Source of the DNA: Candidatus Heimdallarchaeota archaeon
GTDB lineage: Archaea > Asgardarchaeota > Heimdallarchaeia > JABLTI01
DNA length: 64,000 nt
Assembly (NCBI GenBank): GCA_030614005.1
Contig: JAUWKS010000002.1
Span: 96,101-160,100, forward strand
Direction of reading: 5' to 3'
Part shown: piece after piece, positions 653-31,290 of the stretch
Numbering within the stretch: position 1 is the stretch's first letter
Layout: every line of letters begins with the position of its first letter
Notes under the pieces: model-generated
Database searches by the model: none
What the model saw: the letters and a program-made list of their open reading frames with translations, nothing else
What the model was told of the DNA's origin: nothing
Made by a program: the position numbers and the translations under genes

Positions 653-777
653 TGGAAGAACACCTAGGATGAATTTTTGTCTAATTATGAATCGTAAACT
701 TTGTGTAATCCTTTAAATATTTCCTCTCACTAGCTGTTTCTATCACCAAACAATTTCTATTTGTTTTTCTACTCTGC

Positions 778-1917
778 CTATGCTTCAAGCCTTCTCTTCT
801 TCGAGGTGGTTGCCCTCTCCGAGTTAGCATTATCATGATCAGCGAAGGAATGCATCTCAGCATCCATAGCAGTATCAAGCTCTTCTCTTTTACTTGCCGA
901 TAATGAGATATTTCCATTTTCCATTATTAATCTCCCATCATAATAATCATTTATAGCCAAATTGACCATAATTAAGAGATGGTTTCGTAAAGAATTTTTT
1001 CCATAACGCATTGACTCAACTATTCGGTTCAATTCTTTTGAGTGATAGATATGGGTATATAACTTCAAATGATTGTCTTGACTTTCTTCAAGTTCCTTTT
1101 TTAATTTTTGGAAATTAATTGAACCATTTTGTTTATCATAACGATAAGAAGTCATAGATGGTTTTTTTCGGGTGATAGAAGAAGCAAGTTTATCATAATG
1201 CTTCAAAATTGGTAAGAAAGGATTTGTGCTTTCTTCTCCGTTGTGGTGGTTCTTACAGGCTTCTTTAATCTCCTCATCCTCAATATCTATCCGTTGATAG
1301 ATTTTGCTTTGATGTTTCTCGGTATGAACGAAATCGTGAAGCATGAGAGCAATGAGTAATTGTTGTAATTCCTCGGGATAATCTGCTCGTATACCAGCTC
1401 GAATCTTGAGTTTTTTGTAGGGCCAAGTTTGCTTGCAAGCAGTACATCGTTTGAGTTTAGAAACCTTATCGTAGATAACCGTTGTGTTTTTACATTGTGG
1501 ACATTTCTCAGATAAAGGAACAGTTACAGTAGGAAACGTTTTTGTAAAATGCTTAATTTCACATGATTCCCAAATGACTCTACCATGCCCTTCAGCAGTC
1601 TTTGAACCCAAAAATGATTTCTGGAGAAATGGTTCTATTTTCCTCTTTAATTGTTCTTCTGAAAAACCCACGCAACTGATTTTAACAAATCCTCGGAATC
1701 CTCGTAAGACAGTAGGATACTGATTCTTACCATAGACCAATTTACCTACAGTTGTAAAGAGAGGTTTGTTTTCCTTCTTTGGATCTCCGACCACTTTTAC
1801 CAGACACCCATACTTCCAATATGTTGATTGTGAAACAATAACAGGATTGATTATTCGACCTACTAAGGTAATAATTTTTTTTTGTTTTAGTTGTAAGCTT
1901 TCCATTCGTCTAAACAC
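778..1917 (-). CDS. RAMP-like/Zn-finger/HD-like fusion protein (small Cas5/Cas6-like RAMP with G-rich loop, CxxC..CxxC, helical domain with HD-like motifs), copy 1
   Basis: The N-terminal ~120 aa ends in a glycine-rich loop (LGSKTAEGHGRVIW) typical of RAMP proteins. This is followed by CPQCKN...CTACKQ, then LMLHDFVHTEKH...NHH...NHLL...NDYYDG, which resembles the permuted HD arrangement of Cas10-type HD domains. Paralogs are at 25734-26738 and 59365-60504. The gene overlaps the downstream end of the Cas7-like gene by 31 nt, consistent with an operon. Confidence 0.45.
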   Translation of the reverse strand: MFRRMESLQLKQKKIITLVGRIINPVIVSQSTYWKYGCLVKVVGDPKKENKPLFTTVGKLVYGKNQYPTVLRGFRGFVKISCVGFSEEQLKRKIEPFLQKSFLGSKTAEGHGRVIWESCEIKHFTKTFPTVTVPLSEKCPQCKNTTVIYDKVSKLKRCTACKQTWPYKKLKIRAGIRADYPEELQQLLIALMLHDFVHTEKHQSKIYQRIDIEDEEIKEACKNHHNGEESTNPFLPILKHYDKLASSITRKKPSMTSYRYDKQNGSINFQKLKKELEESQDNHLKLYTHIYHSKELNRIVESMRYGKNSLRNHLLIMVNLAINDYYDGRLIMENGNISLSASKREELDTAMDAEMHSFADHDNANSERATTSKKRRLEA

Positions 1918-2819
1918 TCCTGTAAGAGATGATTTTGATTCTCAATTTGTTCAACTTCGAGGATAGCGATTTTTCCGTTAATCTCTGTACCTAACTTTCG
2001 TTCTTGGAAAATGCGCTCAAAAGTTATGTCTTTTATTTCTAATCGACCATAACCACTATTTTCTCCTTTGCCTAAATGAGTGATACCAAAAATTCCCTTA
2101 ACTAATAATCCAAGCAACCACTCAGGTAATTCTTTGGTAAATTCTACATAAAATTGAAATTCACCAGAGAAATATTGTTCAGAGAAATCTTGTAATGATT
2201 TGCCGTCTCGTCTTGCAGAGTGACGATTCTCAGTAGAAACATGAACAAAAGAAAGTCCTTTTTGAGCAGTAATTTTGTTTAGTGATTTATCAGTTTGGAT
2301 AAGCACATCACTCCACACTTTGATTAAAGATTTTTCTCCGAGCATACCAAAGAGTCGTCGAATAGCACAGGGACTTTCTCCACACTTTCCCATAAGGTGT
2401 TCATTTTCAAGAAGTGTAGGCTCTCCAGTCCCTTTGAATTGTTCTTTCATAGTTGGAGAACAATAACTTATTCCTTTTCCATGTAGAATATTCATGATAC
2501 TATGTCTAAGAGCTCCTCGTATACCTTTCACTGCTCGAGAGTTTCCATACTCCTCTTTTAGAATTGATACTTGTATTTTCGCATCTTTCTTCTTCTCAGA
2601 AGCTTTGGCTCTTAGCTCTTCTAAATCATCAAGAACTATATCTTTGTTTAGAATGAGAAATTCTTCCAAGTCAGACACTTTAACGTTTGTCTTTCCTTGA
2701 AATTGGTAAGGTATCTCTCCACCCTTCATAAGAAATGAACTTGATCCACTACTACCGTTTAGTGTTTTTGTAAAGTATGCATAGACTCTTATTGTTAACC
2801 GATTAAATGTTTGTGTCAT
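1887..2819 (-). CDS. Cas7-like RAMP protein (Csm3/Cmr4-like), copy 1; the ORF could start at 2873 but the paralog alignment favours the Met at 2819
   Basis: Contains the RAMP hallmark AVKGIRGALRHS (cf. Cas7 GSS-[IL]-KG-x-LR-[ST]). A Cys pair followed by LFG (GKCGESPCAIRRLFG) resembles Csm3/Cmr4. A C-terminal glycine-rich loop (GKGENSGYGRLEI) is present. Paralogs are at 26729-27508 and 60474-61418. Confidence 0.55.
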   Translation of the reverse strand: MTQTFNRLTIRVYAYFTKTLNGSSGSSSFLMKGGEIPYQFQGKTNVKVSDLEEFLILNKDIVLDDLEELRAKASEKKKDAKIQVSILKEEYGNSRAVKGIRGALRHSIMNILHGKGISYCSPTMKEQFKGTGEPTLLENEHLMGKCGESPCAIRRLFGMLGEKSLIKVWSDVLIQTDKSLNKITAQKGLSFVHVSTENRHSARRDGKSLQDFSEQYFSGEFQFYVEFTKELPEWLLGLLVKGIFGITHLGKGENSGYGRLEIKDITFERIFQERKLGTEINGKIAILEVEQIENQNHLLQECLDEWKAYN

Positions 2820-2911
2820 GATAACTAACCAATTAACCATATAGTCAACCATATATTTAAGCATTTTGTACATAAGAAAATTAAAGAATAATCAAAGATA
2901 CAGTTAATTAG
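2820..2911. promoter_or_regulatory. Divergent promoter region between Cas7-like gene and AbrB-like gene (cassette 1)
   Basis: A ~90 nt AT-rich spacer between divergently oriented genes, with TATA-like runs. The same ~100 nt arrangement occurs in the other two cassettes. No specific boxes could be assigned. Confidence 0.25.
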
Positions 2912-3100
2912 ATGGTACAAATGGGTGAAGCAAAGAAACCGACTATAAAATTCAAACGAAAAATCGTTGGAAATACGGGTGTAACAAGAATAACAATACC
3001 TAAAGAAATTACAAACGCATTAGACATTCACTTAGGAGAATATTGGGAAGTTTATGCTGAGGATAATGATACGATAATAGTGAAAAGAATCAAAGAATGA
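2912..3100 (+). CDS. AbrB/SpoVT-family (swapped-hairpin) DNA-binding protein, cassette-associated regulator/antitoxin-like
   Basis: 62 aa; KRKIVGNTGVTRITIPKEITNALDIHLGEYWEV fits the AbrB/MazE looped-hinge-helix pattern (..G.s..itIPKeire.lgi..Gd.v). Four paralogs lie in the window, three of them divergent from Cas7-like genes. Confidence 0.65.
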   Translation: MVQMGEAKKPTIKFKRKIVGNTGVTRITIPKEITNALDIHLGEYWEVYAEDNDTIIVKRIKE

Positions 3101-3122
3101 TAATGTTAGGTTCTCAATAGTA

Positions 3123-3197
3123 TCCCATGTGGAGCGTCGTGAATCACTGTAAGTGATGAACAGCGACTGCATGAGTCTGCTCCGAGCAAGAGCATTG
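3123..3197. ncRNA. Candidate structured non-coding element at the 3' edge of duplication unit A
   Basis: 75 nt, GC-richer than its surroundings, and able to form nested hairpins (tggagc...gctcca; atcact-gta-agtgat; gcgtcg/cgactgc). The flanks are 100% identical to the copy at 61722-61796. The central hairpin carries 6 substitutions, including one compensatory pair. Confidence 0.3.
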
Positions 3198-3244
3198 GTT
3201 TTCTTCTTTGTAAATATCAGAATTAAAAAAAATCTTTGTTGGCC

Positions 3245-3838: not shown

Positions 3839-4495
3839 CTAATTGCTGTCTTCTCTAATACTAATATCCCTCAAACATTTAACAGCCATTTCTCCACCTA
3901 TTTGTCCTAAAGCAAAAGTTGCCCAAGCACGTACACGAATATTATTATCATAAACAGCCAGTATTTCAATACGTTTTACAGCTTTTTGTGCAGTTAGATC
4001 TCCTAATGTCCATATAGCTTCTTTTCGTTTTTTCACCCTTAAAGAATCAAGTTGCGAAATTGATTTATCTATACGCTCTTCTTTCTTAATTATTGGTAGT
4101 AGGTTAACATTAAAGAAATTTTGAAAATCATCATATCCTAATTTGTTACTTAAACTATCCAAAGAAATTATAACCATATCTTGAATAGCTTTGTCCGGAT
4201 CATCATCTTTCATTTCAAAAAGTTTGATGAAAAAAGATGTTTGATTTTTCACATCGAGATTGGTGCTTGCCAACACTGTTAAGGCAGTTTTTCGAATATT
4301 TGAATCCTCATTATCTAATCGGTTCAATAATTGATGTATTACCTCATCTTTTTCTTTTTCAGTTAGAGCTTCATTTTTTAATTTCTCGCCCAACATATAT
4401 GTCCCAGAATCTAAACTTGCAAATTCTCCTGCGGCTAAAAGTAATAAAAATCCAAGTCCAACTATTAAAATCGTTTCAAGCACCATAAAATACAC
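3839..4495 (-). CDS. HEAT/PBS-lyase-like repeat protein with N-terminal transmembrane anchor
   Basis: 218 aa with an N-terminal TM helix. Repeats of the HEAT type are present (NIRVRAWATFALGQIG; NIRKTALTVLASTNLD). Confidence 0.55.
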   Translation of the reverse strand: MYFMVLETILIVGLGFLLLLAAGEFASLDSGTYMLGEKLKNEALTEKEKDEVIHQLLNRLDNEDSNIRKTALTVLASTNLDVKNQTSFFIKLFEMKDDDPDKAIQDMVIISLDSLSNKLGYDDFQNFFNVNLLPIIKKEERIDKSISQLDSLRVKKRKEAIWTLGDLTAQKAVKRIEILAVYDNNIRVRAWATFALGQIGGEMAVKCLRDISIREDSN

Positions 4496-4762: not shown

Positions 4763-4981
4763 ATGAAAAAAAGATCTACTTTTCCACCCACAACCATACA
4801 AAGGATCATAAAAGAGATAACGGGTATGATGGTCTCACAAGAACTGGCAGAATACGAAGCAGAAGTACTACTGAGAATTCTAACAAAAAGAACACTAAAA
4901 CTATACGCAGAACAACACAAAAAGAAAATATTGAAAAAAAAGATGGCTCAATTACTCGACCAATTTGAACCACCATATTAA
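4763..4981 (+). CDS. Histone-fold protein (archaeal/eukaryote-like histone or NC2/NF-Y-like)
   Basis: 72 aa; TTIQRIIKEITGMMVSQELAEYEAEVLLRILTKRTLKLYAEQHKK follows the helix-loop-helix-loop-helix histone-fold pattern of archaeal histones (I.RIiK.....vS.dA...L...Le.....i...A...A.HA.RKT). Called on sequence pattern only. Confidence 0.4.
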   Translation: MKKRSTFPPTTIQRIIKEITGMMVSQELAEYEAEVLLRILTKRTLKLYAEQHKKKILKKKMAQLLDQFEPPY

Positions 4982-5001
4982 ATCATTTTTTGTTTATCTA
5001 T

Positions 5002-5949
5002 TCACGTTGTCCGGTGATGATAGAAACCCATCTGTTCGCGAAGATCAGAAAGGGCAGTGAAATGAACGACTTGGCTAAGATTGAGAGATAGCTCGGGATG
5101 GGAAGGATCAGCCTTAGCACGAAGATTATATGCTTGAATGGCATGAAGAGCCTTGTCACGGTCACGCTTAAAGGGAACAAGGACAACATAACGACCGCGA
5201 CCACGCAACTCTTTTTCAGCGGTCAAGAGACGTTTGAGAAAATCGCTCTCATTATACGCTTTACTGCCGGTGTGAACCTCAAACCACCAAAGAGTGCTAC
5301 CACCGGTATGATCAACGCGAAGGCAATTATCAACAACAAAATCACCACTGCCGTCCCAATGGGGAAAACGCCAAAGATTATCAGAAGCATGAAAGAGACT
5401 GCCCTCAAGACCGGCGCGAAGAACACGAAAAGAGAGCTCGGCAAAAGCGTCGTGAGGGGGAAACCGCGCACGAAAATTGCGGGGAAGAAGGGGATAATGC
5501 TCACGAGGATAACCAAACCAATAGGCAAAACGAACACCAGTACAAGGCATGGGATAGGCACGAACAAGACCTAAGCGAAAGAGACGAAGAGAACCACCCA
5601 AACCAGAAAAATACTCTCTATCAGCATAGCACTCGCCAGTGGTCAAATGAATGCGAAGACTATCATCACAATAACGATCAAGAAAAGAGCCAAAAAATTT
5701 CCTGAGAAGAAAGAGAAAATCATTAATCGAGAAAAGGGGCTGAGGAGAACCAAAAGGATTGGGAGTAAGAGATTTCAAGAAACGGCGCTCGGACTTTTCT
5801 AAAAGATGGAAGGGAAGATTATCAAAATTAAGAGTGGAATGAGAAGGCCAACCGGAAGGAAGAACAGGGGGAAGAGAAGATTTGACACGCTTGACCAAGG
5901 AAAACAACAACAATAAAAAATGAAAAAGAAAATATAAAAAGACCAACAA
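5002..5949 (-). CDS. Hypothetical protein inside a GC-rich compositional island; only the C-terminal ~180 aa look globular
   Basis: Long ORF in a region whose GC content and purine skew differ sharply from flanking DNA. The C-terminal part has diverse composition (…VVDNCLRVDHTGGSTLWWFEVHTGSKAYNESDFLKRLL…). The N-terminal ~100 aa are low-complexity, so the true start may be the internal Met (MPCTGVRF). Function unknown. Confidence 0.3.
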   Translation of the reverse strand: MLVFLYFLFHFLLLLFSLVKRVKSSLPPVLPSGWPSHSTLNFDNLPFHLLEKSERRFLKSLTPNPFGSPQPLFSINDFLFLLRKFFGSFLDRYCDDSLRIHLTTGECYADREYFSGLGGSLRLFRLGLVRAYPMPCTGVRFAYWFGYPREHYPLLPRNFRARFPPHDAFAELSFRVLRAGLEGSLFHASDNLWRFPHWDGSGDFVVDNCLRVDHTGGSTLWWFEVHTGSKAYNESDFLKRLLTAEKELRGRGRYVVLVPFKRDRDKALHAIQAYNLRAKADPSHPELSLNLSQVVHFTALSDLREQMGFYHHRTT

Positions 5950-7907: not shown

Positions 7908-9335
7908 TTATTTTGGCGTCTCCCTAATTACTGGCAATTCTTGCCCATGTGTTCGCAGATAATCTGCGTATTCAGTTAATATACCAATTCCATAAACAGA
8001 TCGTGCCGGTGTTGGGTAAAATGGAAAATTCATTTGCTCCAATTCCTCTCGAATATAAAGAGCTTCTTCACCACCTATCGCACAGAAAGTAACCGTTTTA
8101 TTGATGCTCTTTGCATATGGTTTCAAACCTTCCATTAATTCCTTTACATTAATTGCGGGAGGAGTTGGTATGATAATGAAAGTAATTGAGTCAACCGCAG
8201 GGTCGTTTATTGTTTGTTCTAAAGCATAAAGATACTCTTTTGCCGTTGCACTTCCTGTTAAATCAATAGGATTTGCAACTGAGAAATATGGCGGTAAATC
8301 TTCCTTCATTTTCTTTTCAATTTCAGGGGATAAATCAGCCAGCTCTAAACCTAAAAGTCCAATAGCATCTGAAGCCATCACTCCTGCACCTCCTCCATCA
8401 GTAATCACAAGAACTTGATTTCCTTTTGGTAGCAATGTACTATTGAATGCTTTCATACAATCAAATAGATTATCCCAAGTATATGCTCTTATAATTCCTG
8501 CTTCTTTGAAAAGTGCCTCTGTAACATCATCATTAGCTGCTAGAGAAGCGGTATGACTGGCAACAGCTCGTGCTCCGGCTTCTGTTCTATTAGCTTTAAT
8601 TGCAATAATCGGTTTCTTTAGTGAAACTTTTCTTGCGGTTTCTATGAATCTTCGTCCATCTTTAAAACCTTCAAGGTAAATAAGAATAATCTTTGTTTCA
8701 GGGTCTTCGCCAAAATATTCTAGTATATCAGCCTCATTGATATCTGAGGCATTCCCAAAGCTAACAAATTTTGAGAGATAATTACCTTTCCCTAAAGAAC
8801 CCATAATATCTAGGAATGCAGATCCAAATGCTCCGCTTTGTGATAAAATTGATATCCCTCCTTCTGTAGGTCTTTTTAGTTTTTCTTCTGGCAAGAAAAC
8901 CATATCTAAACCTCTTTTTGGATAGAATAAACCAATACAATTTGGTCCTATAATTCTAATATCATGTTCTTTGGCAATTGTATCTATCTGTTGTTGTAAT
9001 TTTATTCCTTCTTCACCTATTTCCTTAAAACCACCGGATATTATCGTAACGGATTTTACTCCCTTTTTAGCGCAGTCTTCCATTGCAGCAGGAACATATT
9101 TTGCTGGAATGATAATTGTTGCAGCTTCTACAGGTCCCTCTACTTCTTCTAAGGTTTTGTAAACAGGTTGTCCTAGAATCTCTCCTCCTTTATGATTGAC
9201 TAAGATTGTTTTGCCATCAAAATTATTTATGAAATTTTCAGCAATAACAAAACCTGGTTTGTCCTTAGAAGCAGATGCACCAAAAATAGCCATACTCTTC
9301 GTTTGGAAAAATTTATGCAAAGGATTTTCAGTCAT
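7908..9335 (-). CDS. acdA: Acetyl-CoA synthetase (ADP-forming) alpha subunit (CoA-binding + succinyl-CoA synthetase-like domains)
   Basis: 475 aa. An N-terminal CoA-binding Rossmann motif (SMAIFGASASKDKPGFVI) and the CoA-ligase/flavodoxin-like domain match the NDP-forming acyl-CoA synthetase family. It pairs with the beta subunit gene. Confidence 0.8.
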   Translation of the reverse strand: MTENPLHKFFQTKSMAIFGASASKDKPGFVIAENFINNFDGKTILVNHKGGEILGQPVYKTLEEVEGPVEAATIIIPAKYVPAAMEDCAKKGVKSVTIISGGFKEIGEEGIKLQQQIDTIAKEHDIRIIGPNCIGLFYPKRGLDMVFLPEEKLKRPTEGGISILSQSGAFGSAFLDIMGSLGKGNYLSKFVSFGNASDINEADILEYFGEDPETKIILIYLEGFKDGRRFIETARKVSLKKPIIAIKANRTEAGARAVASHTASLAANDDVTEALFKEAGIIRAYTWDNLFDCMKAFNSTLLPKGNQVLVITDGGGAGVMASDAIGLLGLELADLSPEIEKKMKEDLPPYFSVANPIDLTGSATAKEYLYALEQTINDPAVDSITFIIIPTPPAINVKELMEGLKPYAKSINKTVTFCAIGGEEALYIREELEQMNFPFYPTPARSVYGIGILTEYADYLRTHGQELPVIRETPK

Positions 9336-11474: not shown

Positions 11475-12158
11475 TTACGTTTCTTTTTCTTTGCGTAATT
11501 CTTCAATTTCTTTAGCTAATTCAGATGAGCGGATATCAGGAGTAGGCAATCCGGTTTCAGCACCCAATCCAATTTCAGTGCCTATTTCACCCATTATTTT
11601 GTCTACATCAGTTTCATCCACATCCAATGACATCATGTCCTCAAAACCTTCATCCATCATATCAGTGGTCATTTCAATTCCTTCAAAGGAGTTTTCTAAA
11701 TCACTAATTAAAGAAGAAATTTCAGGTGCATTTAGTGTAGCATTTACTTCACGAAGAGCTCCAGCCATTCCTTTCAGTTCACCAGCGAGTTGTTGAACAG
11801 AATCAGCTTGTTCTAATCTGAAAATTATTCCTTCAATACGGGTAGTTAAACGAGTGTAACTGTACACCCATTTACGATTTCTAGCTACATTAGAAGCATA
11901 AAGTCGTGCTTGATCCATTAATCCCTTACGCATAGCTTCACGTGTTTTACGTTGAATCTTAGCTTCATCATTTTCAAGTTTCCTTGATGTTCGGGATAGT
12001 CGCTTATTTACCATTTTCAAATCAATAATATAATCTCGAGTAGATTTACCGCCGCCTAACCAGCGAGCGAATTTTCCAAATACCATAGTTTTTTCCAACC
12101 TTTTTTTCTGGTAACACATTATTTTACATTCACTAAAAAAAAGCTTTCTAAATAACAA
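11475..12158 (-). CDS. ESCRT-III (Snf7/CHMP-family) protein
   Basis: 227 aa coiled-coil protein with a basic N-terminal half and an acidic C-terminal half (…DEGFEDMMSLDVDETDVDKIMGEI…), as in Snf7/Vps2/CHMP proteins. Confidence 0.7.
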   Translation of the reverse strand: MLFRKLFFSECKIMCYQKKRLEKTMVFGKFARWLGGGKSTRDYIIDLKMVNKRLSRTSRKLENDEAKIQRKTREAMRKGLMDQARLYASNVARNRKWVYSYTRLTTRIEGIIFRLEQADSVQQLAGELKGMAGALREVNATLNAPEISSLISDLENSFEGIEMTTDMMDEGFEDMMSLDVDETDVDKIMGEIGTEIGLGAETGLPTPDIRSSELAKEIEELRKEKET

Positions 12159-17367: not shown

Positions 17368-18750
17368 TTGAGAAGATGGAAAATATATTTAATATGTAAT
17401 ACAATACAAAGTATCAGGGATTCGAAATTGGGATTGAGAAAACTAAATAGTACTGCAATAGTAGTAGTGATTGTATTAATTATCTTTTCAATAACTGGAA
17501 TAGCTATTTTCTTAGGGAATAGAAGTAAACCAATCACAATTATTGAAATAAATCATGTGAGCGATTTCTATCAAAGATATCATTTTCCTGGAAAAGGAAC
17601 GGAAGAAGAGCCTTACATAATTGAAGGATATAGATTGTCGGGTAATAAATACCATAACATCAAAATCTCATTAATAAAAGAGCATTTTATCATTCGAAAT
17701 TGTGTTGTGGAAAATTCAAATAAAGGAATTGAACTTATTGGATGTGAAAACGCAAAAATTATCAATAATACTATCAGAAACAATGATTTTGGAATTTGGA
17801 ACGGTGAGGGTATAATTAAAGGTAATTTGTTTAGTAATAATTTCAGTCCAATTGCCGGTTCTGTGTGTTGCAGAATACAATCAAATATCTTTAACAATAG
17901 CAAGTCAAATCCGAAGGGATGGAATGATGGAATCAGATTTTCTTCCTATGAAACAATAATTGAAGACAATATTTTCAATTCATTTGGCAAAGCGATAGTT
18001 TTGGATCGCGGAAGAGTAATTCAAGTAAAAAATAACTCGTTTAGGAATTGTGATTTTGGTGTTATTGTTAATGATGTTACGGACTGTAAACTAACATTTA
18101 ACACAGCGATAAATTGTACCACAGGGTTTACAATCATTCGAAGTGAAGAGATAGAATTATTACATAATAATTCAACAAAAAACAGAGAGAACGGATTCAA
18201 TATCGATACTGCTGAAAACTGCCTAATAGAAGGAAACAATGGATCAGGAAATGGAGACTATGGCATCTTGATGAAACGGATGACAAATGGGGATATACGA
18301 AATAATTACTTTGAGAGGAATAATGCAAGCGGTTTGTGTTTGTGGGTAGGGGATTATTATTCCATTAATAATAACTCTTGTAGCAATAACAACATAGGGA
18401 TAGAATTGAGCTGTGTAAATAATACTTCAATAAACTATAACAAAATTGAAACCAATAAAGAATACGGAATTGTAACAAGCGGTACAAATGCAACAATATG
18501 GAATAACAATTTCATAAACAACAATAATGACAATAACCCAACAATTACTTCGCAAGCGAAAGCAATAGTGAATGGAACAGGAATTTTTGATGAAAAATAT
18601 TATGGTTATCCTGAATGGTACAAGAAACAAGAAGAGAGAGGAAACTATTGGTCTGAATTAGTTTGGGCTATTGGAATAGAATATTTGATAGACCCAGGAA
18701 ATTGTACAGATAGCTATCCGCTTGAAAAACCAATAATGATAGATATATAA
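17368..18750 (+). CDS. Membrane-anchored right-handed beta-helix (pectate-lyase-like) repeat surface protein, paralog 1
   Basis: 460 aa. An N-terminal TM anchor is followed by many NN[ST]IxxNxxGIxL repeats. The C-terminus is conserved with its paralogs (GNYWSELVWAIGIEYLIDPGNCTDSYPLEKPIMI). Confidence 0.55.
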   Translation: MRRWKIYLICNTIQSIRDSKLGLRKLNSTAIVVVIVLIIFSITGIAIFLGNRSKPITIIEINHVSDFYQRYHFPGKGTEEEPYIIEGYRLSGNKYHNIKISLIKEHFIIRNCVVENSNKGIELIGCENAKIINNTIRNNDFGIWNGEGIIKGNLFSNNFSPIAGSVCCRIQSNIFNNSKSNPKGWNDGIRFSSYETIIEDNIFNSFGKAIVLDRGRVIQVKNNSFRNCDFGVIVNDVTDCKLTFNTAINCTTGFTIIRSEEIELLHNNSTKNRENGFNIDTAENCLIEGNNGSGNGDYGILMKRMTNGDIRNNYFERNNASGLCLWVGDYYSINNNSCSNNNIGIELSCVNNTSINYNKIETNKEYGIVTSGTNATIWNNNFINNNNDNNPTITSQAKAIVNGTGIFDEKYYGYPEWYKKQEERGNYWSELVWAIGIEYLIDPGNCTDSYPLEKPIMIDI

Positions 18751-18943
18751 AATCTCTATTATTTCATTAGTTTTTTTAGTAGATACTGTAAAAGTAAAGC
18801 TTCAAATGAACCACCTGTACAGTGACTTTTTTTTGTCAGTTATTTCAAATGAGTAACATAAGAATAAATTTCCTAAAAAAAGGAAACATTTATAACATAA
18901 TTTATGTACTTAATTATTGCTCTTTTTGAAAAGGAGCTGAGAG
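18751..18943. repeat. Duplicated intergenic segment (partner 21992-22190)
   Basis: ~170 nt that are nearly identical between the two copies (…aaatctctattat…agtagatactgtaaaagtaaagcttcaaatga…gtgacttttttttgtcagttatttcaaatgagtaacataagaataaatttccta…). Confidence 0.6.
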
Positions 18944-20440
18944 TTGGGAAATATGAAAAGACAAAAAAAACAGATAATTGTGGGATTATTACTTTCAATA
19001 ATCATTATTGGAATAATGAGTCCTTTAATTTCAAATGTTCGAGCAGCAAGTTATGCACTAGGTTACGTGAAAGATGATGGAACACGTGCAGGTATTGCTA
19101 GTGTTTATGTGACTGTTTATGGAAGATACGTGGATTCATATGGAAGGTTAAAATCCTTCTCAAGGAGTGGGTATACTAATTCATATGGTCGTTATTTGAT
19201 TACTCTCCCCAGTACAACCGTTTACACAAATGGATTAAGGGCTTCAAAAACAGGTTATGTTACTTACGATGGTAGTGTTGTAAATCCAGTTTATTTATCT
19301 GCGAAAGCTATCTCACTGCGCTTTACTGGTAAAGTTTTAGAAAAAACCGAAATCAATAATATTAAATATGTAAATTCAGGTACAAACACACTTACCTTAG
19401 ATTTACTCAATGATGGCCAAATAACAGGTTATTCCGATGTAATTACTGAGAAAATTATTTATGTAAGAATATATGATAAAAGCAACAATCTACTAAGGAC
19501 TGTATCATGCAATCAAGCAACAGGTTATTACGATACAGGTTCCTTCGGAGCACCAGCAGGAAATATAAAAGTCGTTATTACAGCAACACCCAGTGATATA
19601 AAACGATACAAAACAATAACCTACACTGAGGAATTTTTATCCACGAAAACAACTAATAAGAACTTCTATTTGGAGAGAGATTTAGGTGAAGTTTGGGCCT
19701 ATGGGGATGATGGAAGTTTTGATGATATTGATTATCATAAGCTAAAAGCCTATCATCCTAATAGTGGTGCCTTTTGGTTTGATGTAATGGACACGACCAT
19801 ACATACCAGTTGTCCTTCAACGATTGTTTATGAGCCTACTACAACAAAAACTACTTGGTCATGGTTAACAACATATTTTAATTGTAGAGGAACACAGCAA
19901 AACTTTATTGATAAAAGTCTAATTCGTGAAGCGAAAATACAGCTTTTTGTACAAAATAGATGGACAGATGATACTGATGTTATCAAAATGGGAAGAATTG
20001 ATAATCAACATAGTGAAGGATTTACAGCCGGTAACTTTGATTGGAATATTCAGGCATCATTGGGATATTCTGGATTGAATAATCCAATAGGCGGACAATT
20101 ACAACTATCGGGATCATATGAAGAGCCAGATGGAGTTATCCCTGATAGCAAGTCTATTGAACCAAAGGATAGAGTAAGAGAAGGAGATTGGACAGAAATT
20201 GGATGGATTACCATGGATTACACTAATCATAAGAAGTATCTTCAAAAATCATTACACACTCACTGGCAAATTGGTATTGATAATGAAAACTATTTGAATT
20301 TAAAAAATTGCGGTTCAAATATAAGATTCAAAGTAGTATATGGATTAAAATACAATCTTGCCAAGCGAATATATGGCAGAGTTGTTATGGCATACTTAGA
20401 TATGAACAAATTCTTGGTGATGATTGCGAATCTGGATTAA
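18944..20440 (+). CDS. Secreted CarboxypepD_reg/Ig-like fold surface protein, paralog 1
   Basis: 498 aa with a signal/TM N-terminus (KKQIIVGLLLSIIIIGIMSPLISNVRA) and a transthyretin-like segment (GYVKDDGTRAGIASVYVTVYGRY). Paralog at 22191-23798. Confidence 0.5.
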   Translation: MGNMKRQKKQIIVGLLLSIIIIGIMSPLISNVRAASYALGYVKDDGTRAGIASVYVTVYGRYVDSYGRLKSFSRSGYTNSYGRYLITLPSTTVYTNGLRASKTGYVTYDGSVVNPVYLSAKAISLRFTGKVLEKTEINNIKYVNSGTNTLTLDLLNDGQITGYSDVITEKIIYVRIYDKSNNLLRTVSCNQATGYYDTGSFGAPAGNIKVVITATPSDIKRYKTITYTEEFLSTKTTNKNFYLERDLGEVWAYGDDGSFDDIDYHKLKAYHPNSGAFWFDVMDTTIHTSCPSTIVYEPTTTKTTWSWLTTYFNCRGTQQNFIDKSLIREAKIQLFVQNRWTDDTDVIKMGRIDNQHSEGFTAGNFDWNIQASLGYSGLNNPIGGQLQLSGSYEEPDGVIPDSKSIEPKDRVREGDWTEIGWITMDYTNHKKYLQKSLHTHWQIGIDNENYLNLKNCGSNIRFKVVYGLKYNLAKRIYGRVVMAYLDMNKFLVMIANLD

Positions 20441-20680
20441 CGTATACATGGCAAAATCTTTGGAATGATGGTGTGAAACTTGACTTTGTTGATGGTGATT
20501 ATACTGCTCAAGATTTTATGGTGAACTTATTAGCTGGTGAAGCATCAACAGTACCAATATCACAATGATGTACTTAATAGTTTGTTATATTTGATAGCAA
20601 ACTATTTTTTTCAATTTCACAAAAAAAAACAAATAAGATAAATTTTGGAAAGAGAATAACATTATATCTGAGGGATAGAA

Positions 20681-21991
20681 TTGAAAAACACAAAAAGAAA
20701 TAGATTATTTGCACTATTAGTTATCAGTCTTATTGTTACAGTTACAGGAACATCAATTTTTTTAGGAATTTGGTTTCGACCTATAAAAGTGATTGAAGTT
20801 TATGACAACAAAGATTTTTCACGGAAATATCATTTTCCAGGCAAAGGTTCGAAAGATAATCCATATGTCATTGAAGGATATACTTTATCTGGAAACAGTC
20901 ATCATAATATACTAATTCGAGATGTATCAAAATATTTCATAATTCGAAATTGTGTTTTAGAGGGATCCAACAAAGGAATTAATCTTCTAAATCTAGAAAA
21001 TGGTTTTGCGAGAATAGAAAACAATACAATTCAGAATAATGTTTATGGTATTCTTATAAAGTCATGTTCAAATTTTATAATAAAAGGAAATGATTTTGAG
21101 GATAATTCTAGAGGAATTGAATCTAGCTCAATTGGAAATGGACTTATAGAAGATAATGTATTTTCAAATTGTGGAAATCAAGGAATGTTCCTTGGTCCAG
21201 ATTATAACATAACAATTCAAAACAATATTTTTAATAATTGTCGTGATGGATTCATTATCTTAGATTCTAATTTAATTTCAATAAATGGAAATACATTCAA
21301 CAATTGTAGTAGAACAAGTTTTGAAGCTCAATATATCAATAACATCAATATTCAAGGTAATACTGCTGTGGATTGTGGAAGTGGTTTTAATGTTGTGTAC
21401 AGTGAAAATGTAATCTTTTTGAGGAATAATTTCACAAAAACCAAAGATTGTATATGGGCCAGCTATTCGGATACAGTAGTAATAGAACAAAATTATTGTA
21501 GGGCAAGTGACACAGAAGGAATAAGAGCATTTGGAATTTCTAATGGAAGAATCAGCAATAATACGTTAGTTTCGAATAACGAAGAGGGACTATACATCTG
21601 GGGTAGTTTACAAATAAAGGTAAATAACAATTCATGCTATAATAATACAATTGGATTGAAGGTATTTTGCTCGAATCTAATAGATATAACCAATAACACT
21701 TTCGAACATAATTTAGAATATGGGGTAGTAACCAAAGGAGCAAATGCTACAATATGGAATAACAATTTCATAAACAATGATTACACAAATATCACTACAA
21801 TAAACTCTCAAGCAAGAGTAGATGGAAATTGTACAGATTGGATAGGATTTCCTATTTGGTATAATGACGATGCCTTACAAGGAAATTATTGGTCGGAGTT
21901 AATATGGTATGAAGGAGTAGAATATTTAATCGACCCAGGAAATCACACAGATAGCTATCCGCTTGAAAATCCAATAATGATAAATATTTAA
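20681..21991 (+). CDS. Membrane-anchored beta-helix repeat surface protein, paralog 2
   Basis: 436 aa, collinear with 17368-18750 and 23959-25311. Confidence 0.55.
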   Translation: MKNTKRNRLFALLVISLIVTVTGTSIFLGIWFRPIKVIEVYDNKDFSRKYHFPGKGSKDNPYVIEGYTLSGNSHHNILIRDVSKYFIIRNCVLEGSNKGINLLNLENGFARIENNTIQNNVYGILIKSCSNFIIKGNDFEDNSRGIESSSIGNGLIEDNVFSNCGNQGMFLGPDYNITIQNNIFNNCRDGFIILDSNLISINGNTFNNCSRTSFEAQYINNINIQGNTAVDCGSGFNVVYSENVIFLRNNFTKTKDCIWASYSDTVVIEQNYCRASDTEGIRAFGISNGRISNNTLVSNNEEGLYIWGSLQIKVNNNSCYNNTIGLKVFCSNLIDITNNTFEHNLEYGVVTKGANATIWNNNFINNDYTNITTINSQARVDGNCTDWIGFPIWYNDDALQGNYWSELIWYEGVEYLIDPGNHTDSYPLENPIMINI

Positions 21992-22190
21992 AATCTCTAT
22001 TATTTTCATCAGTTTTTTTAGTAGATACTGTAAAAGTAAAGCTTCAAATGAAGCACCTGTACAGTGACTTTTTTTTGTCAGTTATTTCAAATGAGTAACA
22101 TAAGAATAAATTTCCTAATAAAAGGAAATATTAATAACATAATATATATCATTGAATATGCTCTTTTTGAAAGGTGAAAGGAGTTGAGAG
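21992..22190. repeat. Duplicated intergenic segment (partner 18751-18943)
   Basis: Near-identical to 18751-18943, indicating tandem segmental duplication. Confidence 0.6.
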
Positions 22191-23798
22191 TTGGAAAAAA
22201 TGAAAAAACAAAAGAAGCAGATAATTGTGGGATTATTATTTTCAATAATCATTATTGGAATAATGAGTCCGTTAATTTCAAATGTTCGAGCAAAAAGCTA
22301 TGCACGAGGTTATGTGAAAGATGATGGAACACGTGCAGGTATTGCTAGTGTATATGTGACTGTTTACGGAAGATACGAGGATTCATATGGAAGGTTAAAA
22401 TCCTTCTCAAGGAGTGGGTATACTAACTCAAATGGTTATTATTCGATTACTCTACCAAGTACAACCGTTTACACAAATGGATTAAGGGCTATAAAAACAG
22501 GTTATGTTACTTATGATGGTAGTGTTGTAAATCCAGTTTATTTATCTGCAAAAAGTATATCACTGCGCTTTACTGGTAAAGTTTTAGAAGATCAAGTAAT
22601 TGACAATATAAAAGTTGTTAATGCCGAACAAGTTTCCCTGGACATTGCTAGTGGAGTTTCAGGTTACTCAAATATTCTAACAGATAAAGTTATTTATGTA
22701 AGAATATATGACAAATGTAACAACCTATTAAGGACAGTGTCATGCAATCAAGTAGAGGGTCATTACGATACAGGTTCTTTTGGTGCTCCTGCTGGAAACA
22801 TTAAATTTGAGATTACATCTTTACCTAGTGATATTCGAAAATATAAGACATTAATACATACAGAGGAAATTTTATCTTCTACAACTGCTAGTAGAAATTT
22901 CTATTTGCAAAGAGATCTTGGTGAAGTTTGGGTTAATGGTCACACCAATGGACCAGGGGCATTTGATGAAATTAATGATCATAAGGTAAATATAGAAGAC
23001 ACTGAAGGGTACGCTTTCATTGAAGGGCTCGATTTCTCTGTTGATGCTGAATGCCCTCCAACAATTGTATATAACCCATGGGGATCATTTGAAACTTATA
23101 CATTCCTAAGAACTAGCTTTGATATTACAGGAGCAACTTTTGGTGCAGCTAAGTGTCTTACACCAGGAGCTAGAGTAAGTTTATATGCAAGAAATCAGTG
23201 GTCTGATAATGTTGATATTCTGGACTTAACAGACATACATTATGATTCTAGCTCACAATATAGTTCAGCTAAGCTTGATTGGACCGTTCAAGCTTCCTTA
23301 GGTTATAGTGGATTAACAAGTGCTCTGGGTGGACAAATTCAGCTTTCCTCAACTTATACTCCACCGCAAGGAGTAAGCATAGATTATGATACAACAAAGT
23401 CACAAGATGGGGATTGGACTAGATTAGGATATATAGATGTAGATTACACAGATGATAAAGAAAATCTACAAAAAAAGATGGACTTAAAATGGGAAATACA
23501 GATAGATAACGGAGAAAACTATGGAGAACTATTTAGCCTTTATGAGTGTGGTTCAAATATTCAATTTAAAGTAGTACATGAATTCAATTTACAATGTGTG
23601 TCTTTAGGTTGTTGGGCTACATTTTATGGAAAAATAAAATTTGAACAAATACTTGGGGACAACACTGTGTCAGGGATAACGACAACACTTTTACCAGAGT
23701 GGGGTTCTTATCTATTAGTGGAAACATTTGGAAACTATGATGCCACCGATTATACTATTAATCTACTCAGAGGTGAATCTGCAATTTTATACATCTAA
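22191..23798 (+). CDS. Secreted CarboxypepD_reg/Ig-like fold surface protein, paralog 2
   Basis: 535 aa; the N-terminal ~130 aa are nearly identical to 18944-20440. Confidence 0.5.
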   Translation: MEKMKKQKKQIIVGLLFSIIIIGIMSPLISNVRAKSYARGYVKDDGTRAGIASVYVTVYGRYEDSYGRLKSFSRSGYTNSNGYYSITLPSTTVYTNGLRAIKTGYVTYDGSVVNPVYLSAKSISLRFTGKVLEDQVIDNIKVVNAEQVSLDIASGVSGYSNILTDKVIYVRIYDKCNNLLRTVSCNQVEGHYDTGSFGAPAGNIKFEITSLPSDIRKYKTLIHTEEILSSTTASRNFYLQRDLGEVWVNGHTNGPGAFDEINDHKVNIEDTEGYAFIEGLDFSVDAECPPTIVYNPWGSFETYTFLRTSFDITGATFGAAKCLTPGARVSLYARNQWSDNVDILDLTDIHYDSSSQYSSAKLDWTVQASLGYSGLTSALGGQIQLSSTYTPPQGVSIDYDTTKSQDGDWTRLGYIDVDYTDDKENLQKKMDLKWEIQIDNGENYGELFSLYECGSNIQFKVVHEFNLQCVSLGCWATFYGKIKFEQILGDNTVSGITTTLLPEWGSYLLVETFGNYDATDYTINLLRGESAILYI

Positions 23799-23958
23799 TT
23801 AAGATTTTTTGCTAAATTTCTAGCAAAAACATTCTCTTTTTTTGGATTAGATGTGTGATTTAAGCATTAGTTTAAATAATGAAAATTTATAACAATCTGG
23901 AAAACATTGGGAATGAACTACCTTTGGATTTTTAACATATTATTATATAAAAACAGTA

Positions 23959-25311
23959 TTGAGTAGATATGGAAATAAAAATATGAGGAAACTGAGAATG
24001 GGATTAAAAAAAGTTGATAACAAAATTCTTACAATACTAATAATTGGACTAGTTATATCTATAACTGGAACAGCAATCTTTTTGGGAATATGGTTCAAAC
24101 CAATAAAAGTAATAGAAATATATGAGGATAAAGATTTTTCACGAAAGTATCACTTTCCCGGAAAGGGAACTAAAGGTGACCCTTATATTATTGATGGATA
24201 CAAATTATCAGGCAATAAATATCATAATATCAAAATATATGATGTTACGAAACATTTTATCATTCAAAATTGTGTTTTGGAACACTCTGATAAAGGTATT
24301 GATCTAAGAGGATTAGCTGATGGTATTGCAATGATAATCAACAATACCATACAAAATAATGATTGGGGGATAAGAGCAAATGCATGTGTTAATTGCTTCA
24401 TAAGTGGAAATAGTTTTTTTAACAATAATGTTGGGATTAGTGCAGGTTCAGGCAATGGTTATACTATACAAGCAAACACCTTTAGTAATAACTCTAATAC
24501 TGCAATGAATTTAATATGGAACTATAATACAAAGATACAAAATAATATTATTGAAACAGTAAATCAAGGGTTGAAAATTACTTATTCTGATTTAGTACTT
24601 ATAGAAGGAAACAACTTTAGCGAGTGTAGTGATATAAGTTTAACAGCACAATATTTAACTGAAACAACCATTGCAAACAACTCAGTAACAAATTGTGGAA
24701 TAGGATTTGCGATTGCTTTTACTGAAACAATCAATATAGATAGGAACAATTTTACAAATAATAACAACGGAGTATTAGTAAGTGTAACAAGCGATGGTTT
24801 AATAGAGCATAATTATTGTGCTAACAATAAATATTATGGAATAAGAGCTTACAATTTGATATATAGTAGTATAAGGAATAATAGACTGATTTCCAATAAT
24901 GGTAGTGGGTTAATAATCGAGCTATGTTTTGCCACAGAGATAAACAATAATACTTGCTACAATAATACTCAAGGATTGGAAATTTCTTGTTCAAGCATAT
25001 CAAAAATCAGCTATAATACATTGGAGCATAATTTAGTGTATGGTATAGTAATGCAAGGAGTAAATACAACTGTTTGGAATAATAATTTTATAGATAATAA
25101 CTATCAAAATAACCCTGAAATTACTTCACAAGCAAAAGTAGAAGGAAATTGTACAGATTGGGTAGGATTTCCAGAATGGTTCAATAATACAACAAAACAA
25201 GGAAACTATTGGTCAGACTTAGCGTGGACGATAGGAATAGAATACACCATCGATCCAGGAAATTATACGGATAGCTATCCACTAGAAGAACCGGTAATAA
25301 TCAATAGCTGA
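23959..25311 (+). CDS. Membrane-anchored beta-helix repeat surface protein, paralog 3
   Basis: 450 aa with the same architecture and conserved C-terminus (GNYWSDLAWTIGIEYTIDPGNYTDSYPLEEPVII). Confidence 0.55.
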   Translation: MSRYGNKNMRKLRMGLKKVDNKILTILIIGLVISITGTAIFLGIWFKPIKVIEIYEDKDFSRKYHFPGKGTKGDPYIIDGYKLSGNKYHNIKIYDVTKHFIIQNCVLEHSDKGIDLRGLADGIAMIINNTIQNNDWGIRANACVNCFISGNSFFNNNVGISAGSGNGYTIQANTFSNNSNTAMNLIWNYNTKIQNNIIETVNQGLKITYSDLVLIEGNNFSECSDISLTAQYLTETTIANNSVTNCGIGFAIAFTETINIDRNNFTNNNNGVLVSVTSDGLIEHNYCANNKYYGIRAYNLIYSSIRNNRLISNNGSGLIIELCFATEINNNTCYNNTQGLEISCSSISKISYNTLEHNLVYGIVMQGVNTTVWNNNFIDNNYQNNPEITSQAKVEGNCTDWVGFPEWFNNTTKQGNYWSDLAWTIGIEYTIDPGNYTDSYPLEEPVIINS

Positions 25312-25733: not shown

Positions 25734-26738
25734 CTATGTTAACGCTTTTTTCTTTTCGCTACTCATGCTAGTAATTCGATGCATCTCAGCATCTCTGATA
25801 GTGTTAAGATCTTCATCTTCTTCATCTATCGATGTTGAGACATTTCTTACTAGGTATACTTTTTCTCTGCTAATTTTCAACCATTGATTGTAGTAGCTAG
25901 TTATTGCAAGATTTACCATTAGTAGTAAGTGGTTTTTGAGTGAGTTTCTTGCATATCTAAAAGACACTACTACTCTATCTAATTCTATAGATTTGAGTAT
26001 ATAATCATACAGTTTATTGGTTGATTCTTGTCTTGCCTCTATTTCTTTTGCTAATTTAACAAAGTCTATCTTACCGTTTTCGAAATCATATCGTCCCTTT
26101 GTCAAATAGCTGGTTTTTCTGTTCATGTATGCCGCTACTTGGTCGAAGTATCTTACTATTGGGTGTAAATTATTCCCTTTTATTTTCCTCACATGATGAT
26201 TTTGACATGCTTCTCTTATTTCCTCATCATTGATTTCTACTTCTTGGAAAATCTTACTCATATGCCTCTCTGTATGCACAAAATCATGAAGCATCAGAGC
26301 TCGAAGTAATCTTTGTAGTTTCTTAGGATAATTTGTTCCCAAACCCTTTCGTATTCTGAATTTCTTTCGTTTTGGTTCTGAAGGTATTTTCTTGTATTTT
26401 TCTTCTTTATACTCTAACCACTTTACTTTTCCAAGGCCATCATTCTTTTTACTTCCTAGATATTCCTTCCTAAGATATTGTTTGATTGTTTCTTTTCCTC
26501 GAGTTTCATTACAATCTACTGTTGTTACTCTTACGAATCCTCTATATGCTAGGTATTCATCGGGTATTTTTCGTTCCCCTTTAATCAATTTTCCAACATA
26601 ACTTTTGAGTGGTTTTTCATTTGTTTCTAATTCTCTAACTATTCTTATCCAGACCTTTCCTTTCTTAAGAAGTGGTTTTGAAGCAATTATTGGTGAGAGT
26701 AATTCACCAGTCAGAGTATAGAGTGTTCTTATTTCCAT
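25734..26738 (-). CDS. RAMP-like/HD-like fusion protein, copy 2 (divergent; lacks the CxxC pairs)
   Basis: 334 aa; G-rich loop LGSKKNDGLGKVKW, then LMLHDFVHTERH...ACQNHH...NHLLLMVNLAITSYY, collinear with 778-1917. Confidence 0.45.
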   Translation of the reverse strand: MEIRTLYTLTGELLSPIIASKPLLKKGKVWIRIVRELETNEKPLKSYVGKLIKGERKIPDEYLAYRGFVRVTTVDCNETRGKETIKQYLRKEYLGSKKNDGLGKVKWLEYKEEKYKKIPSEPKRKKFRIRKGLGTNYPKKLQRLLRALMLHDFVHTERHMSKIFQEVEINDEEIREACQNHHVRKIKGNNLHPIVRYFDQVAAYMNRKTSYLTKGRYDFENGKIDFVKLAKEIEARQESTNKLYDYILKSIELDRVVVSFRYARNSLKNHLLLMVNLAITSYYNQWLKISREKVYLVRNVSTSIDEEDEDLNTIRDAEMHRITSMSSEKKKALT

Positions 26739-27508
26739 GCTTTCAACACCTCATCCATCTCTTTCCAGAGATTTTGTTCTGATTCTTTTTCGATTACTTT
26801 TCCTTTCTTTACAGTTCTCGTCCTTGTTACTTCTTGCAAATTCACTTCTAGTAGGTCTATTTTCCCAGCACCGTTATTTGCCGATGCACCCCACCGTATT
26901 TCGGGCATGTAAAGAATACTTTTCAAAAGGAATCCTAGTAACTCTTGATCTAGCTCTTTTAGTAGTTCGATCTCCAAGTTAAATTCACCAGCAATGAATC
27001 GTTCTCTAAAATCTTGTGTGCTTCTCTTTGAATCTTTCATTAGAGCATTTCGTATTTCAGTAGATAGATGTACTTTCTGTGCGTCATTAATTTCTTCTTT
27101 GATGTTATCGGATGTTATTATCACAGGATTAAATCTCACTACGGATTGTTTCTTTAAGGACCCCATTAATTTATGTCTAATGCATTCTTCTTCTGGATAG
27201 CATGAACCATTAAGATGATACCCTTCAGGTAGTAATGGTTCTCCTTTCTGTGTTGTCTTTTTATCAGATATGTGACATACTTCTATTTCTCTTTGTTTTG
27301 CCAGTTCCATCATTGCGTGATTCAATACGCCTCTTAATCCTTTTACTAAGTATCTCTTACCCTCTTTTCCACCATTTGGATTATAGACTAATAGCAGATT
27401 TTTCATATTCCCTCTTGCCATCTGACCATTTCCAGGTTTCGCTATGGAGGTTCTAACAGTTATTTTTATTCGCTTAAACGTTCGAGAGACAAACATAAGT
27501 TTCACCAT
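26729..27508 (-). CDS. Cas7-like RAMP protein, copy 2 (divergent)
   Basis: 259 aa with RYLVKGLRGVLNHAMMEL (G-x-LR motif). The N-terminus RTFKRIKITVRT is collinear with the copy 1/3 N-termini. It overlaps the downstream RAMP-HD gene by 10 nt. Confidence 0.5.
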   Translation of the reverse strand: MVKLMFVSRTFKRIKITVRTSIAKPGNGQMARGNMKNLLLVYNPNGGKEGKRYLVKGLRGVLNHAMMELAKQREIEVCHISDKKTTQKGEPLLPEGYHLNGSCYPEEECIRHKLMGSLKKQSVVRFNPVIITSDNIKEEINDAQKVHLSTEIRNALMKDSKRSTQDFRERFIAGEFNLEIELLKELDQELLGFLLKSILYMPEIRWGASANNGAGKIDLLEVNLQEVTRTRTVKKGKVIEKESEQNLWKEMDEVLKAWK

Positions 27509-29857: not shown

Positions 29858-29975
29858 AGAAATAAATTATAATATTTCAGAAACAATAGAAGTGAATTGA
29901 TTACTAACTATTTTTGAAATAAACTATTGGGTATTAGATATTAACTGTATACAACAACACAATAAAAACAATTCT

Positions 29976-30056
29976 AGCCATCTGCCCGTTACCAGGTTTC
30001 GCTATTGATGTTCTAGCGGTTATTTTTATTCGCTTAAATGTTCGAGAGACGTTCAT
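29976..30056 (-). pseudogene. Truncated Cas7-like gene remnant (N-terminal ~27 codons only)
   Basis: Reverse translation MNVSRTFKRIKITARTSIAKPGNGQMAR matches the N-terminus of 26729-27508 (MFVSRTFKRIKITVRTSIAKPGNGQMAR) with ~85% nucleotide identity, after which the homology ends. An AbrB-like gene lies divergently 124 nt away. Confidence 0.5.
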
Positions 30057-31163: not shown

Positions 31164-31290
31164 GGTTTTTTGGGGTTAAATGGTTAATATGGTTATTGTG
31201 TTTACTAGTAAGTAGTTATTTAAATATTTCCTACACATGTGTAAAATAAACATACACAAGTCTTAAATAGTTGTCCCCTTCTGTAAAAGT

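Follow-up and report, generated by a model that had tools for sequence, protein, structure and literature searches.

What can a set of CRISPR-type effector genes do where no CRISPR array is at hand to guide it? The question is raised by a 64-kb stretch of DNA from a Candidatus Heimdallarchaeota archaeon (the window, meaning the whole stretch analysed), in which a small cassette occurs several times. Each full copy encodes an AbrB-type regulator, a Cas7-like RAMP and a second protein, here called protein 2, that appears to join a small RAMP domain to an HD-like one. The window is chromosomal Heimdall DNA with genes for PolB, Snf7 and a RagA-like GTPase. The presence of the cassettes is confirmed and their homology-based interpretation is supported: they are most likely the effectors of a CRISPR derivative that lacks an array, is related to types III and VII and is restricted to Asgard archaea, of the class named Asgard RAMP (ARAMP). 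The copies and their genes are as follows.

778-1917, minus strand: copy A, protein 2, 379 aa; RAMP domain at residues ~10-125, zinc ribbon at ~138-165, HD-like helical domain at ~175-330, then a conserved, predicted disordered tail
1887-2873, minus strand: copy A, Cas7-like RAMP, 328 aa as an open reading frame, overlapping the protein 2 gene by 31 nt
2912-3100, plus strand: copy A, small DNA-binding protein of the AbrB/SpoVT family, divergent from the RAMP gene
25734-26738, minus strand: copy B, protein 2, 334 aa, without zinc ribbon
26729-27508, minus strand: copy B, Cas7-like RAMP, 259 aa, without a helical insertion of ~50 aa
27609-27785, plus strand: copy B, AbrB
59365-60504, minus strand: copy C, protein 2, 379 aa, zinc ribbon present; the sequence used for modelling
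60474-61418, minus strand: copy C, Cas7-like RAMP, 314 aa
61506-61685, plus strand: copy C, AbrB
29934-30056, minus strand: remnant, 5' fragment of a RAMP gene (hidden Markov model E 5e-5)
30181-30357, plus strand: remnant, intact AbrB gene
44318-44512, minus strand: decayed fifth copy, 3' end of a protein 2 gene (last ~60 codons, ending in EAEMHLFFSMSNAIS before the stop), truncated beside a TnpB gene
44833-46473: TnpB/IS605-type gene, 546 aa, occupying the expected place of the body of the decayed copy

The original prediction, made from the letters of the window, had counted three full copies of a three-gene unit and one remnant. The three copies are present as open reading frames with the same layout, and 78 nt of the remnant (29973-30050) match the RAMP gene of copy B at its 5' end with 88% DNA identity, but the decayed copy at 44318-44512 had been overlooked and the unit frequently exceeds three genes, being joined by a LAGLIDADG gene with a helix-turn-helix (HTH) domain, by an arm of four genes and by a structured element. 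Comparison with homologues places the true start of the copy A RAMP gene likely at 2819, which would give a protein of 310 aa. Identity between copies A and C is 73% for the RAMP and 78% for protein 2, against 35% and 42% between A and B, and judged by their sequences the three are clearly paralogues and not recent duplicates. At the nucleotide level the protein 2 genes of A and C (778-1917 vs 59365-60504) form a mosaic, in which codons 31-130 and 331-370 reach ~90-97% identity, their synonymous sites being nearly the same, and the remainder is 57-80% identical; this pattern indicates gene conversion between the paralogues. A conserved overlapping open reading frame or RNA inside the 3' end of the protein 2 gene had also been considered on account of 95% nucleotide identity, and was dropped in favour of gene conversion because of the mosaic and because the tail is conserved at the protein level across clades.

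The divergent arrangement that had been predicted for the AbrB gene is seen in the open reading frames: it and the RAMP gene are transcribed away from each other from a shared promoter region of ~90 nt. The product of copy A matches Pfam MazE_antitoxin (E 1.8e-4) and TIGR01439 (above cutoff) and that of copy B the 'doc_partner' model (E 1.8e-9), so that by its family matches the small plus-strand protein is a swapped-hairpin DNA binder of the AbrB/SpoVT-MazE type. Wherever it is present it lies on the opposite strand, and it is thus not co-transcribed with the other two genes as a type II toxin-antitoxin antitoxin would be.

The RAMP gene encodes a Cas7-fold protein, as had been proposed. All three copies score above the gathering cutoff of PF03787 (32.6, 32.1 and 26.8 bits for A, B and C; cutoff 22.1), PADLOC returns Csm3 (E 1.6e-8) and Cmr1 models, and the closest sequence match in the PDB is Csm3 of M. 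jannaschii (4qts, E 5e-4), aligned over the C..C..FG and G-rich loop regions. An AlphaFold2 model built on 37 homologues has a predicted local distance difference test score (pLDDT) of 87, and its top 50 Foldseek hits in the PDB are all Cas7 subunits, of types VII, III, IV and I; type VII Cas7 (8z4j_J, E 7e-7) ranks first and is followed by Sulfolobus Csm, Csf2, type I-A Cas7 and Cas7-11. The motifs quoted in the original prediction are present in the alignments, namely KGxRGAxRHS, C..C..LFG and the G-rich loop GxGxNSGYGR. Residues C120, H141, C146 and C151 are invariant, and this suggests a zinc site. The catalytic aspartate with which type III Cas7 cleaves target RNA sits in the N-terminal region of the protein; no invariant acidic residue was seen in the N-terminal ~45 residues of the Cas7-like alignment (A4) on a reading of the sequences, and for this reason the Cas7 backbone probably does not cleave.

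Protein 2 reads as a small RAMP, Cas5-like by where its gene lies, with an apparently catalytically intact HD-type domain fused to it. This reading is drawn from the structural model, from invariant histidines and aspartates and from a weak but recurrent match to Pfam HD. The AlphaFold2 model of the copy C sequence (pLDDT 85, disordered from residue 343) consists of a beta-rich, RAMP-like N-terminal domain, with the G-rich loop between a helix and the last strand, and a C-terminal domain of seven helices. Foldseek returned only RAMPs for it, type VII Cas5 being among the top matches of the N-terminal domain; protein 2 thus combines a RAMP fold and G-rich loop with a gene position beside Cas7. 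Both proteins of the cassette therefore fall in RAMP folds by profile and Foldseek searches. The expected motifs are found (LGxxTxEGxGxVxW and LHDFVHTEKH...NHH...YYD...NHLL), and in an alignment of 50 diverse members 17 columns are invariant, including the putative HD ligands H194, D195, H202, H224 and H313 together with N319, while H225 and D242 are kept in 90% or more of the sequences. Pfam HD matches weakly in 19 of these 50 members, over the span from LLHDxxH to YYD. The order of the motifs, HD..H..HH..D..H, is compatible, as a sequence order, with the circular permutation of the Cas10-type HD domain. The predicted architecture held for the RAMP fold and the ligands; the zinc ribbon, which had been given as a general feature, is limited to copies A and C.

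Sequence searches of the PDB with profiles of 3 and of 50 members of protein 2 returned the zinc ribbon or noise only, and no NCBIfam or PADLOC model matched, which leaves it without a curated family. No cyclase family matched either: its 334-379 aa are taken up by the RAMP domain, the optional zinc ribbon and the helical domain, with no Palm/GGDEF or D4 domain. The tail of the protein (778-900 and homologues; C-terminal 40 residues of alignment A3) is predicted to be disordered and keeps the motifs DAEMH, SNADSES and SKKRRLG/EA across clades; it may be a docking peptide.

Both protein families are confined to Asgard archaea. The databases hold 87 clusters for protein 2 and 44-87 for the RAMP, nearly all carrying the label Heimdallarchaeota, Hodarchaeales or Promethearchaeota. 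When 1.84 billion representatives were searched exhaustively by profile, only 147 clusters came out, mostly fragments, and none of them connects the protein family to a named one; a profile search of the genome contigs gave 3 loci. For comparison 73 related loci were fetched (given L-numbers here). Wherever both genes were detected (43 of 43 loci) the RAMP gene and that of protein 2 are adjacent or overlapping with the RAMP first, and one database protein of 536 aa (P0154) has the RAMP domain joined to protein 2, through either natural fusion or the merging of gene calls. The pairing in related Asgard genomes, which the original prediction had proposed to check, usually includes the AbrB gene, divergent and upstream in the Heimdall-type clades; the same trio occurs in the called-gene tables of Heimdall metagenome-assembled genomes. 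A distant clade, mostly labelled Hodarchaeales (L006 2640-9306; L046-L057), lacks AbrB and has a protein 2 of 269 aa, whose gene is separated from that of the RAMP by a 65-aa open reading frame; directly downstream comes a small gene (a GIY-YIG nuclease in L006) and a gene for a DEAD/ResIII helicase of 1323 aa lies upstream.

No CRISPR-like array, Cas6, Cas10 or Cas11 was found in the 64 kb, as predicted, and the window likewise contains no tRNA and no Rfam family. A standard type III or IV locus, with canonical array and standard cas genes, is found neither in the window nor recurrently in the 73 related loci, and no Cas14 beta-CASP gene lies beside any cassette of the window or recurs among the neighbours. 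A genuine array lies near the cassette in a single lineage (L041 397-1050; L042 1-1556), 2-3.5 kb beyond the LAGLIDADG gene; its repeat is 37 nt long, its spacers are ~39 nt and the reverse complement of the repeat ends in ATTGAAAT. This array is flanked by EF-2 and unrelated genes, with no cas genes in the sequence examined.

These arrays bear on the first alternative, that the cassettes are ordinary minimal CRISPR interference modules loading CRISPR RNAs (crRNAs) whose arrays and Cas6 lie in other parts of the genome. Such use of crRNAs from distant arrays is seen in many type III loci, and the Cas7 and Cas5-like folds as well as the array of L041/L042 would suit such an arrangement. We nevertheless consider it unlikely, given that the array accompanies one lineage in 73 loci and has no cas genes at its flanks, that the window is empty of array, Cas6, Cas10 and Cas11, and that three to five divergent paralogues within 64 kb are hard to explain by one shared pool of crRNAs.

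The cassette is often part of a larger unit. In about 20 loci a gene of 520-550 codons follows AbrB on the same strand; its product has two LAGLIDADG motifs, with both catalytic aspartates kept, and an Xre-type HTH domain, and the gene recurs as the fourth of the module. The extended parts found in the window are these.

28283-29857, plus strand: LAGLIDADG-HTH gene, downstream of AbrB of copy B
31689-33260, plus strand: LAGLIDADG-HTH gene of the remnant module
46645-48273, plus strand: LAGLIDADG-HTH gene of the decayed copy
33854-38096, plus strand: four-gene arm beyond the remnant LAGLIDADG gene, encoding proteins of 261, 674 and 241 aa and a PD-(D/E)XK nuclease
37338-38096: last gene of the arm, PD-(D/E)XK nuclease of 252 aa with a Cas4-like cysteine pattern

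With neither the LAGLIDADG gene nor the arm, copies A and C stand alone as three-gene cassettes. L015 (834-4979) has the same four genes, identically ordered, beyond its LAGLIDADG gene, and a partial arm is found in L003, L021, L033/34 and L008/9; a PD-(D/E)XK gene lies near the cassettes in the arm of the window and in L008/9, L015, L021 and L033/34, and none at copies A and C. The 674-aa protein has a winged-helix N-terminus, cysteine clusters and E..N..H..D..E motifs in which N479, H509, D519 and E522 are invariant; these motifs could be regarded as Cas1-like, a likeness that is unconfirmed. Between the AbrB and LAGLIDADG genes of the remnant module a pair encoding a YokU-like protein (251 aa) and a DUF4258 protein (104 aa) is inserted (30408-31605), and it looks like a toxin-antitoxin pair.

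Non-coding DNA beyond the LAGLIDADG gene contains short A-rich direct repeats, among them AATCACAAAAAA and a doubled TATCATAAAAAAACGG; where the arm exists, they lie in the intergenic space facing it. A conserved non-coding stretch of ~100 nt accompanies them, and these sequences may be protein-binding sites.

33400-33853, window: A-rich repeats
4836-5100, L008: A-rich repeats
4838-5000, L034: A-rich repeats
2646-2742, L041: A-rich repeats

Asgard archaea are the archaeal lineage closest to eukaryotes, and their array-less RAMP derivatives are not new: ARAMP and the similar HRAMP were reportedly described by Makarova et al. in 2019 and 2020. To our knowledge both are known only from comparative genomics, and neither their bound RNA nor their function has been established. 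Summaries describe ARAMP as Asgard-specific, array-less and type III-derived, with diverged Cas5 and Cas7, nucleases that are most often HNH or PD-(D/E)XK, and usually a very divergent Cas1 (PMC8730458, PMC12669027). Compared by these descriptions, the present cassettes are likewise Asgard-restricted and array-less, with a highly diverged Cas7 and a Cas5-like protein, nearest to type III; the extended locus adds a PD-(D/E)XK nuclease, uncharacterised proteins and, if the unconfirmed likeness of the 674-aa protein were right, a divergent Cas1. They differ in that copies A and C consist of three genes without Cas1-like, HNH or PD-(D/E)XK proteins, and in that the sole nuclease domain of the core is an HD fused to a small RAMP; the AbrB regulator, the LAGLIDADG-HTH gene and the structured element are unmentioned in the ARAMP summaries (PMC8730458, PMC12669027). 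The extended locus thus fits the ARAMP description, with the solo cassettes A and C as stripped-down versions, and the chance that these very families already belong to the ARAMP set is roughly even. The novelty implied by the original prediction was accordingly overstated, array-less Asgard RAMP systems being already in the literature; it is moderate, because the cassettes match the published summaries.

Other reduced systems share single traits with the cassettes. Type VII (Cas14, Cas7 and Cas5) is also a reduced, largely archaeal derivative of type III with a presumably non-catalytic Cas7 backbone, and it provides the best structural match of the Cas7-like protein (8z4j_J) and one of the top matches of the N-terminal domain of protein 2, but the cassettes have neither a Cas14 (beta-CASP) gene nor an array and carry their nuclease as an HD fused to the Cas5-like protein. 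The RAMP resembles Csm3 of type III-A Csm in sequence and the HD-type metal ligands are present; however, Palm/cyclase, D4 and Cas11 are missing, the HD is on a small RAMP and not on Cas10, and a conserved aspartate equivalent to the catalytic residue of Csm3 was not seen in the Cas7-like protein. Type IV-C has a large subunit, Csf1, with a C-terminal Cas10-like HD, and it is likewise a reduced class 1 effector whose Cas10-related HD has moved onto another subunit (PMC8730458). Type IV nevertheless has separate Csf1, Csf2 and Csf3 and usually an array, whereas here the Cas5-like protein bears the HD and a large subunit is missing.

The structured element, of ~100 nt, came to light as an 84-nt block after AbrB with 88% identity between copies A and C, and was located elsewhere by nhmmer and two covariance models.

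3108-3211, plus strand: directly after the stop of copy A AbrB, ending in a hairpin and T-run
61707-61810, plus strand: after copy C AbrB
33297-33400, minus strand: antisense to the remnant LAGLIDADG gene, at the module edge
48299-48397, minus strand: antisense to the LAGLIDADG gene of the decayed copy
8710-8814, minus strand, L004: structured element
11566-11669, L026: structured element
3885-3990, L003: structured element
5104-5208, L008: structured element
3028-3132, minus strand, L010: structured element, ~3.7 kb beyond the AbrB gene and not directly after it

The element occupies the outer edge of either the AbrB arm or the AbrB-LAGLIDADG arm, and between these two arrangements its orientation flips, being sense after AbrB (A, C, L004, L026) and antisense after the LAGLIDADG gene (33297-33400, 48299-48397, L003, L008). 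Compensatory changes are seen in 12 of the 21 modelled pairs, 88.7% of cells are paired vs 21-44% when the partners are slid, and G-U-dominated positions point to the listed strand. The 3' end is a hairpin followed by ATTGA and the T-run. Searches of Rfam with the element, at gathering and at permissive thresholds, gave no family. The archaeal CRISPR repeat carries an 8-nt handle, and the end of the element is reminiscent of such a repeat with its handle. The element might serve the Cas7/Cas5-HD complex as a dedicated RNA partner of non-CRISPR origin, either a hard-wired guide or a scaffold, much like a solo repeat-like RNA. We rate this reading as a long shot. Were it true, no smaller class 1-type effector would be known that works without an array.

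The mechanism to which we lean slightly is a Cas7 filament bound to RNA, with a Cas5-like-HD nuclease as its cap and AbrB as its repressor. The Cas7-like protein would polymerise along a putative RNA partner and the RAMP domain of protein 2 would cap one end of the filament, as Cas5 does; with protein 2 so placed, the HD domain would be the sole catalytic output, cutting nucleic acid once the bound RNA pairs with a target. AbrB would repress the divergent promoters. The RNA would not come from a local CRISPR array, and candidates for it are a cellular or foreign transcript, crRNAs made elsewhere and the structured element. The role would most likely lie in genetic conflict, either defence or competition between elements, with paralogues diversified in specificity. 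It is supported by the defence-type neighbours, by the two decayed copies and by the helicase and GIY-YIG genes flanking the distant subfamily. Copy B and the decayed copies adjoin conflict-type genes (NERD-NACHT, TnpB, the YokU/DUF4258 pair and a DEAD-MZB-phosphoesterase helicase), and PD-(D/E)XK and toxin-antitoxin-like genes are also present in the window. An RNA-guided complex would be a class 1-type nuclease of very small size and a snapshot of type III/VII machinery stripped down and redeployed in this lineage; without RNA guidance, RAMP proteins would be operating outside CRISPR logic. The locus is a compact test case for either outcome, offering a two-protein putative effector with good models, a simple regulator, a candidate RNA element, and natural solo and extended versions side by side.

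Several results weigh against the capped filament and its role in conflict. The HD assignment of protein 2 stays below every curated threshold, PDB and hidden Markov model searches gave no match in its C-terminal domain, and in its RAMP domain Cas5 is indistinguishable from other small RAMPs. For the RNA partner of the complex there are candidates only. The structured element is not universal, since two rounds of covariance-model searching found no loci beyond about 9 and a filters-off search of eight other LAGLIDADG-bearing loci found it absent. For the Cas1 likeness of the 674-aa protein, Pfam and PDB profile searches gave no significant hit, and hhalign against the verified E. coli Cas1 was non-significant (E 0.07, probability 0.8%). 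Finally, several paralogue clades sit at fixed chromosomal positions, beside rpoE/spt4 (8 loci), Snf7 (7 loci) or EF-2, and such places beside housekeeping genes fit a domesticated cellular function better than mobile defence.

Domestication is accordingly the second alternative, by which the cassette would encode a cellular RNA-binding or processing factor, a regulatory ribonucleoprotein of Heimdallarchaeia with no part in defence. The fixed positions recur across many metagenomes and the RAMP protein is well conserved within clades (55-78%), as would be expected of such a factor. We hold it to be decidedly unlikely: decayed copies and an insertion sequence share the window with the intact ones, the surroundings resemble a defence island, the module is tied to nucleases and the LAGLIDADG gene, and its distribution is patchy with variable copy number.

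The extended unit could also be understood as the cargo or targeting module of a mobile element, in which the LAGLIDADG protein and the Cas1-like/Cas4-like arm move DNA while the RAMP-HD proteins guide or protect it, as in CRISPR-associated transposons (CAST) and casposon-related elements. The recurrence of the LAGLIDADG-HTH gene after AbrB with its catalytic residues kept and the recurrence of the arm with its nuclease speak for this, as do the structured element standing exactly where the homology between A and C (754-3197 vs 59341-61796) stops and the cassette block of L008, which sits between SRP54 and rpoE. It remains very doubtful, however, because neither terminal inverted repeats nor duplicated target sites were seen, the cassettes keep orthologous positions, A and C have no LAGLIDADG gene or arm, and the exact element pattern found nothing in a scan of viral contigs. 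A toxin-antitoxin or abortive-infection pair without RNA guide, in which AbrB would be the antitoxin or a repressor and the HD protein the toxin, with the RAMP assisting it, is highly improbable: the AbrB/MazE-family matches ('doc_partner' included) and the multiple, frequently decaying copies recall such loci, but AbrB is divergent and not co-operonic, the distant subfamily lacks it entirely, and we know of no role for a Cas7-fold partner in toxin-antitoxin systems.

Two regions of the window, 38428-43671 and 48594-55914, are defence-island-like; they encode a NERD-NACHT STAND protein of 1747 aa and an unannotated protein of 1392 aa followed by a DEAD/Helicase_C-MZB-metallophosphoesterase of 1058 aa. 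Five tandem paralogues of 436-535 aa lie at 17368-25311, of which the single copy scanned (17368-18750) is a NosD/right-handed beta-helix protein, and the DNA of this region repeats with a period of ~3.25 kb at up to 93% identity.

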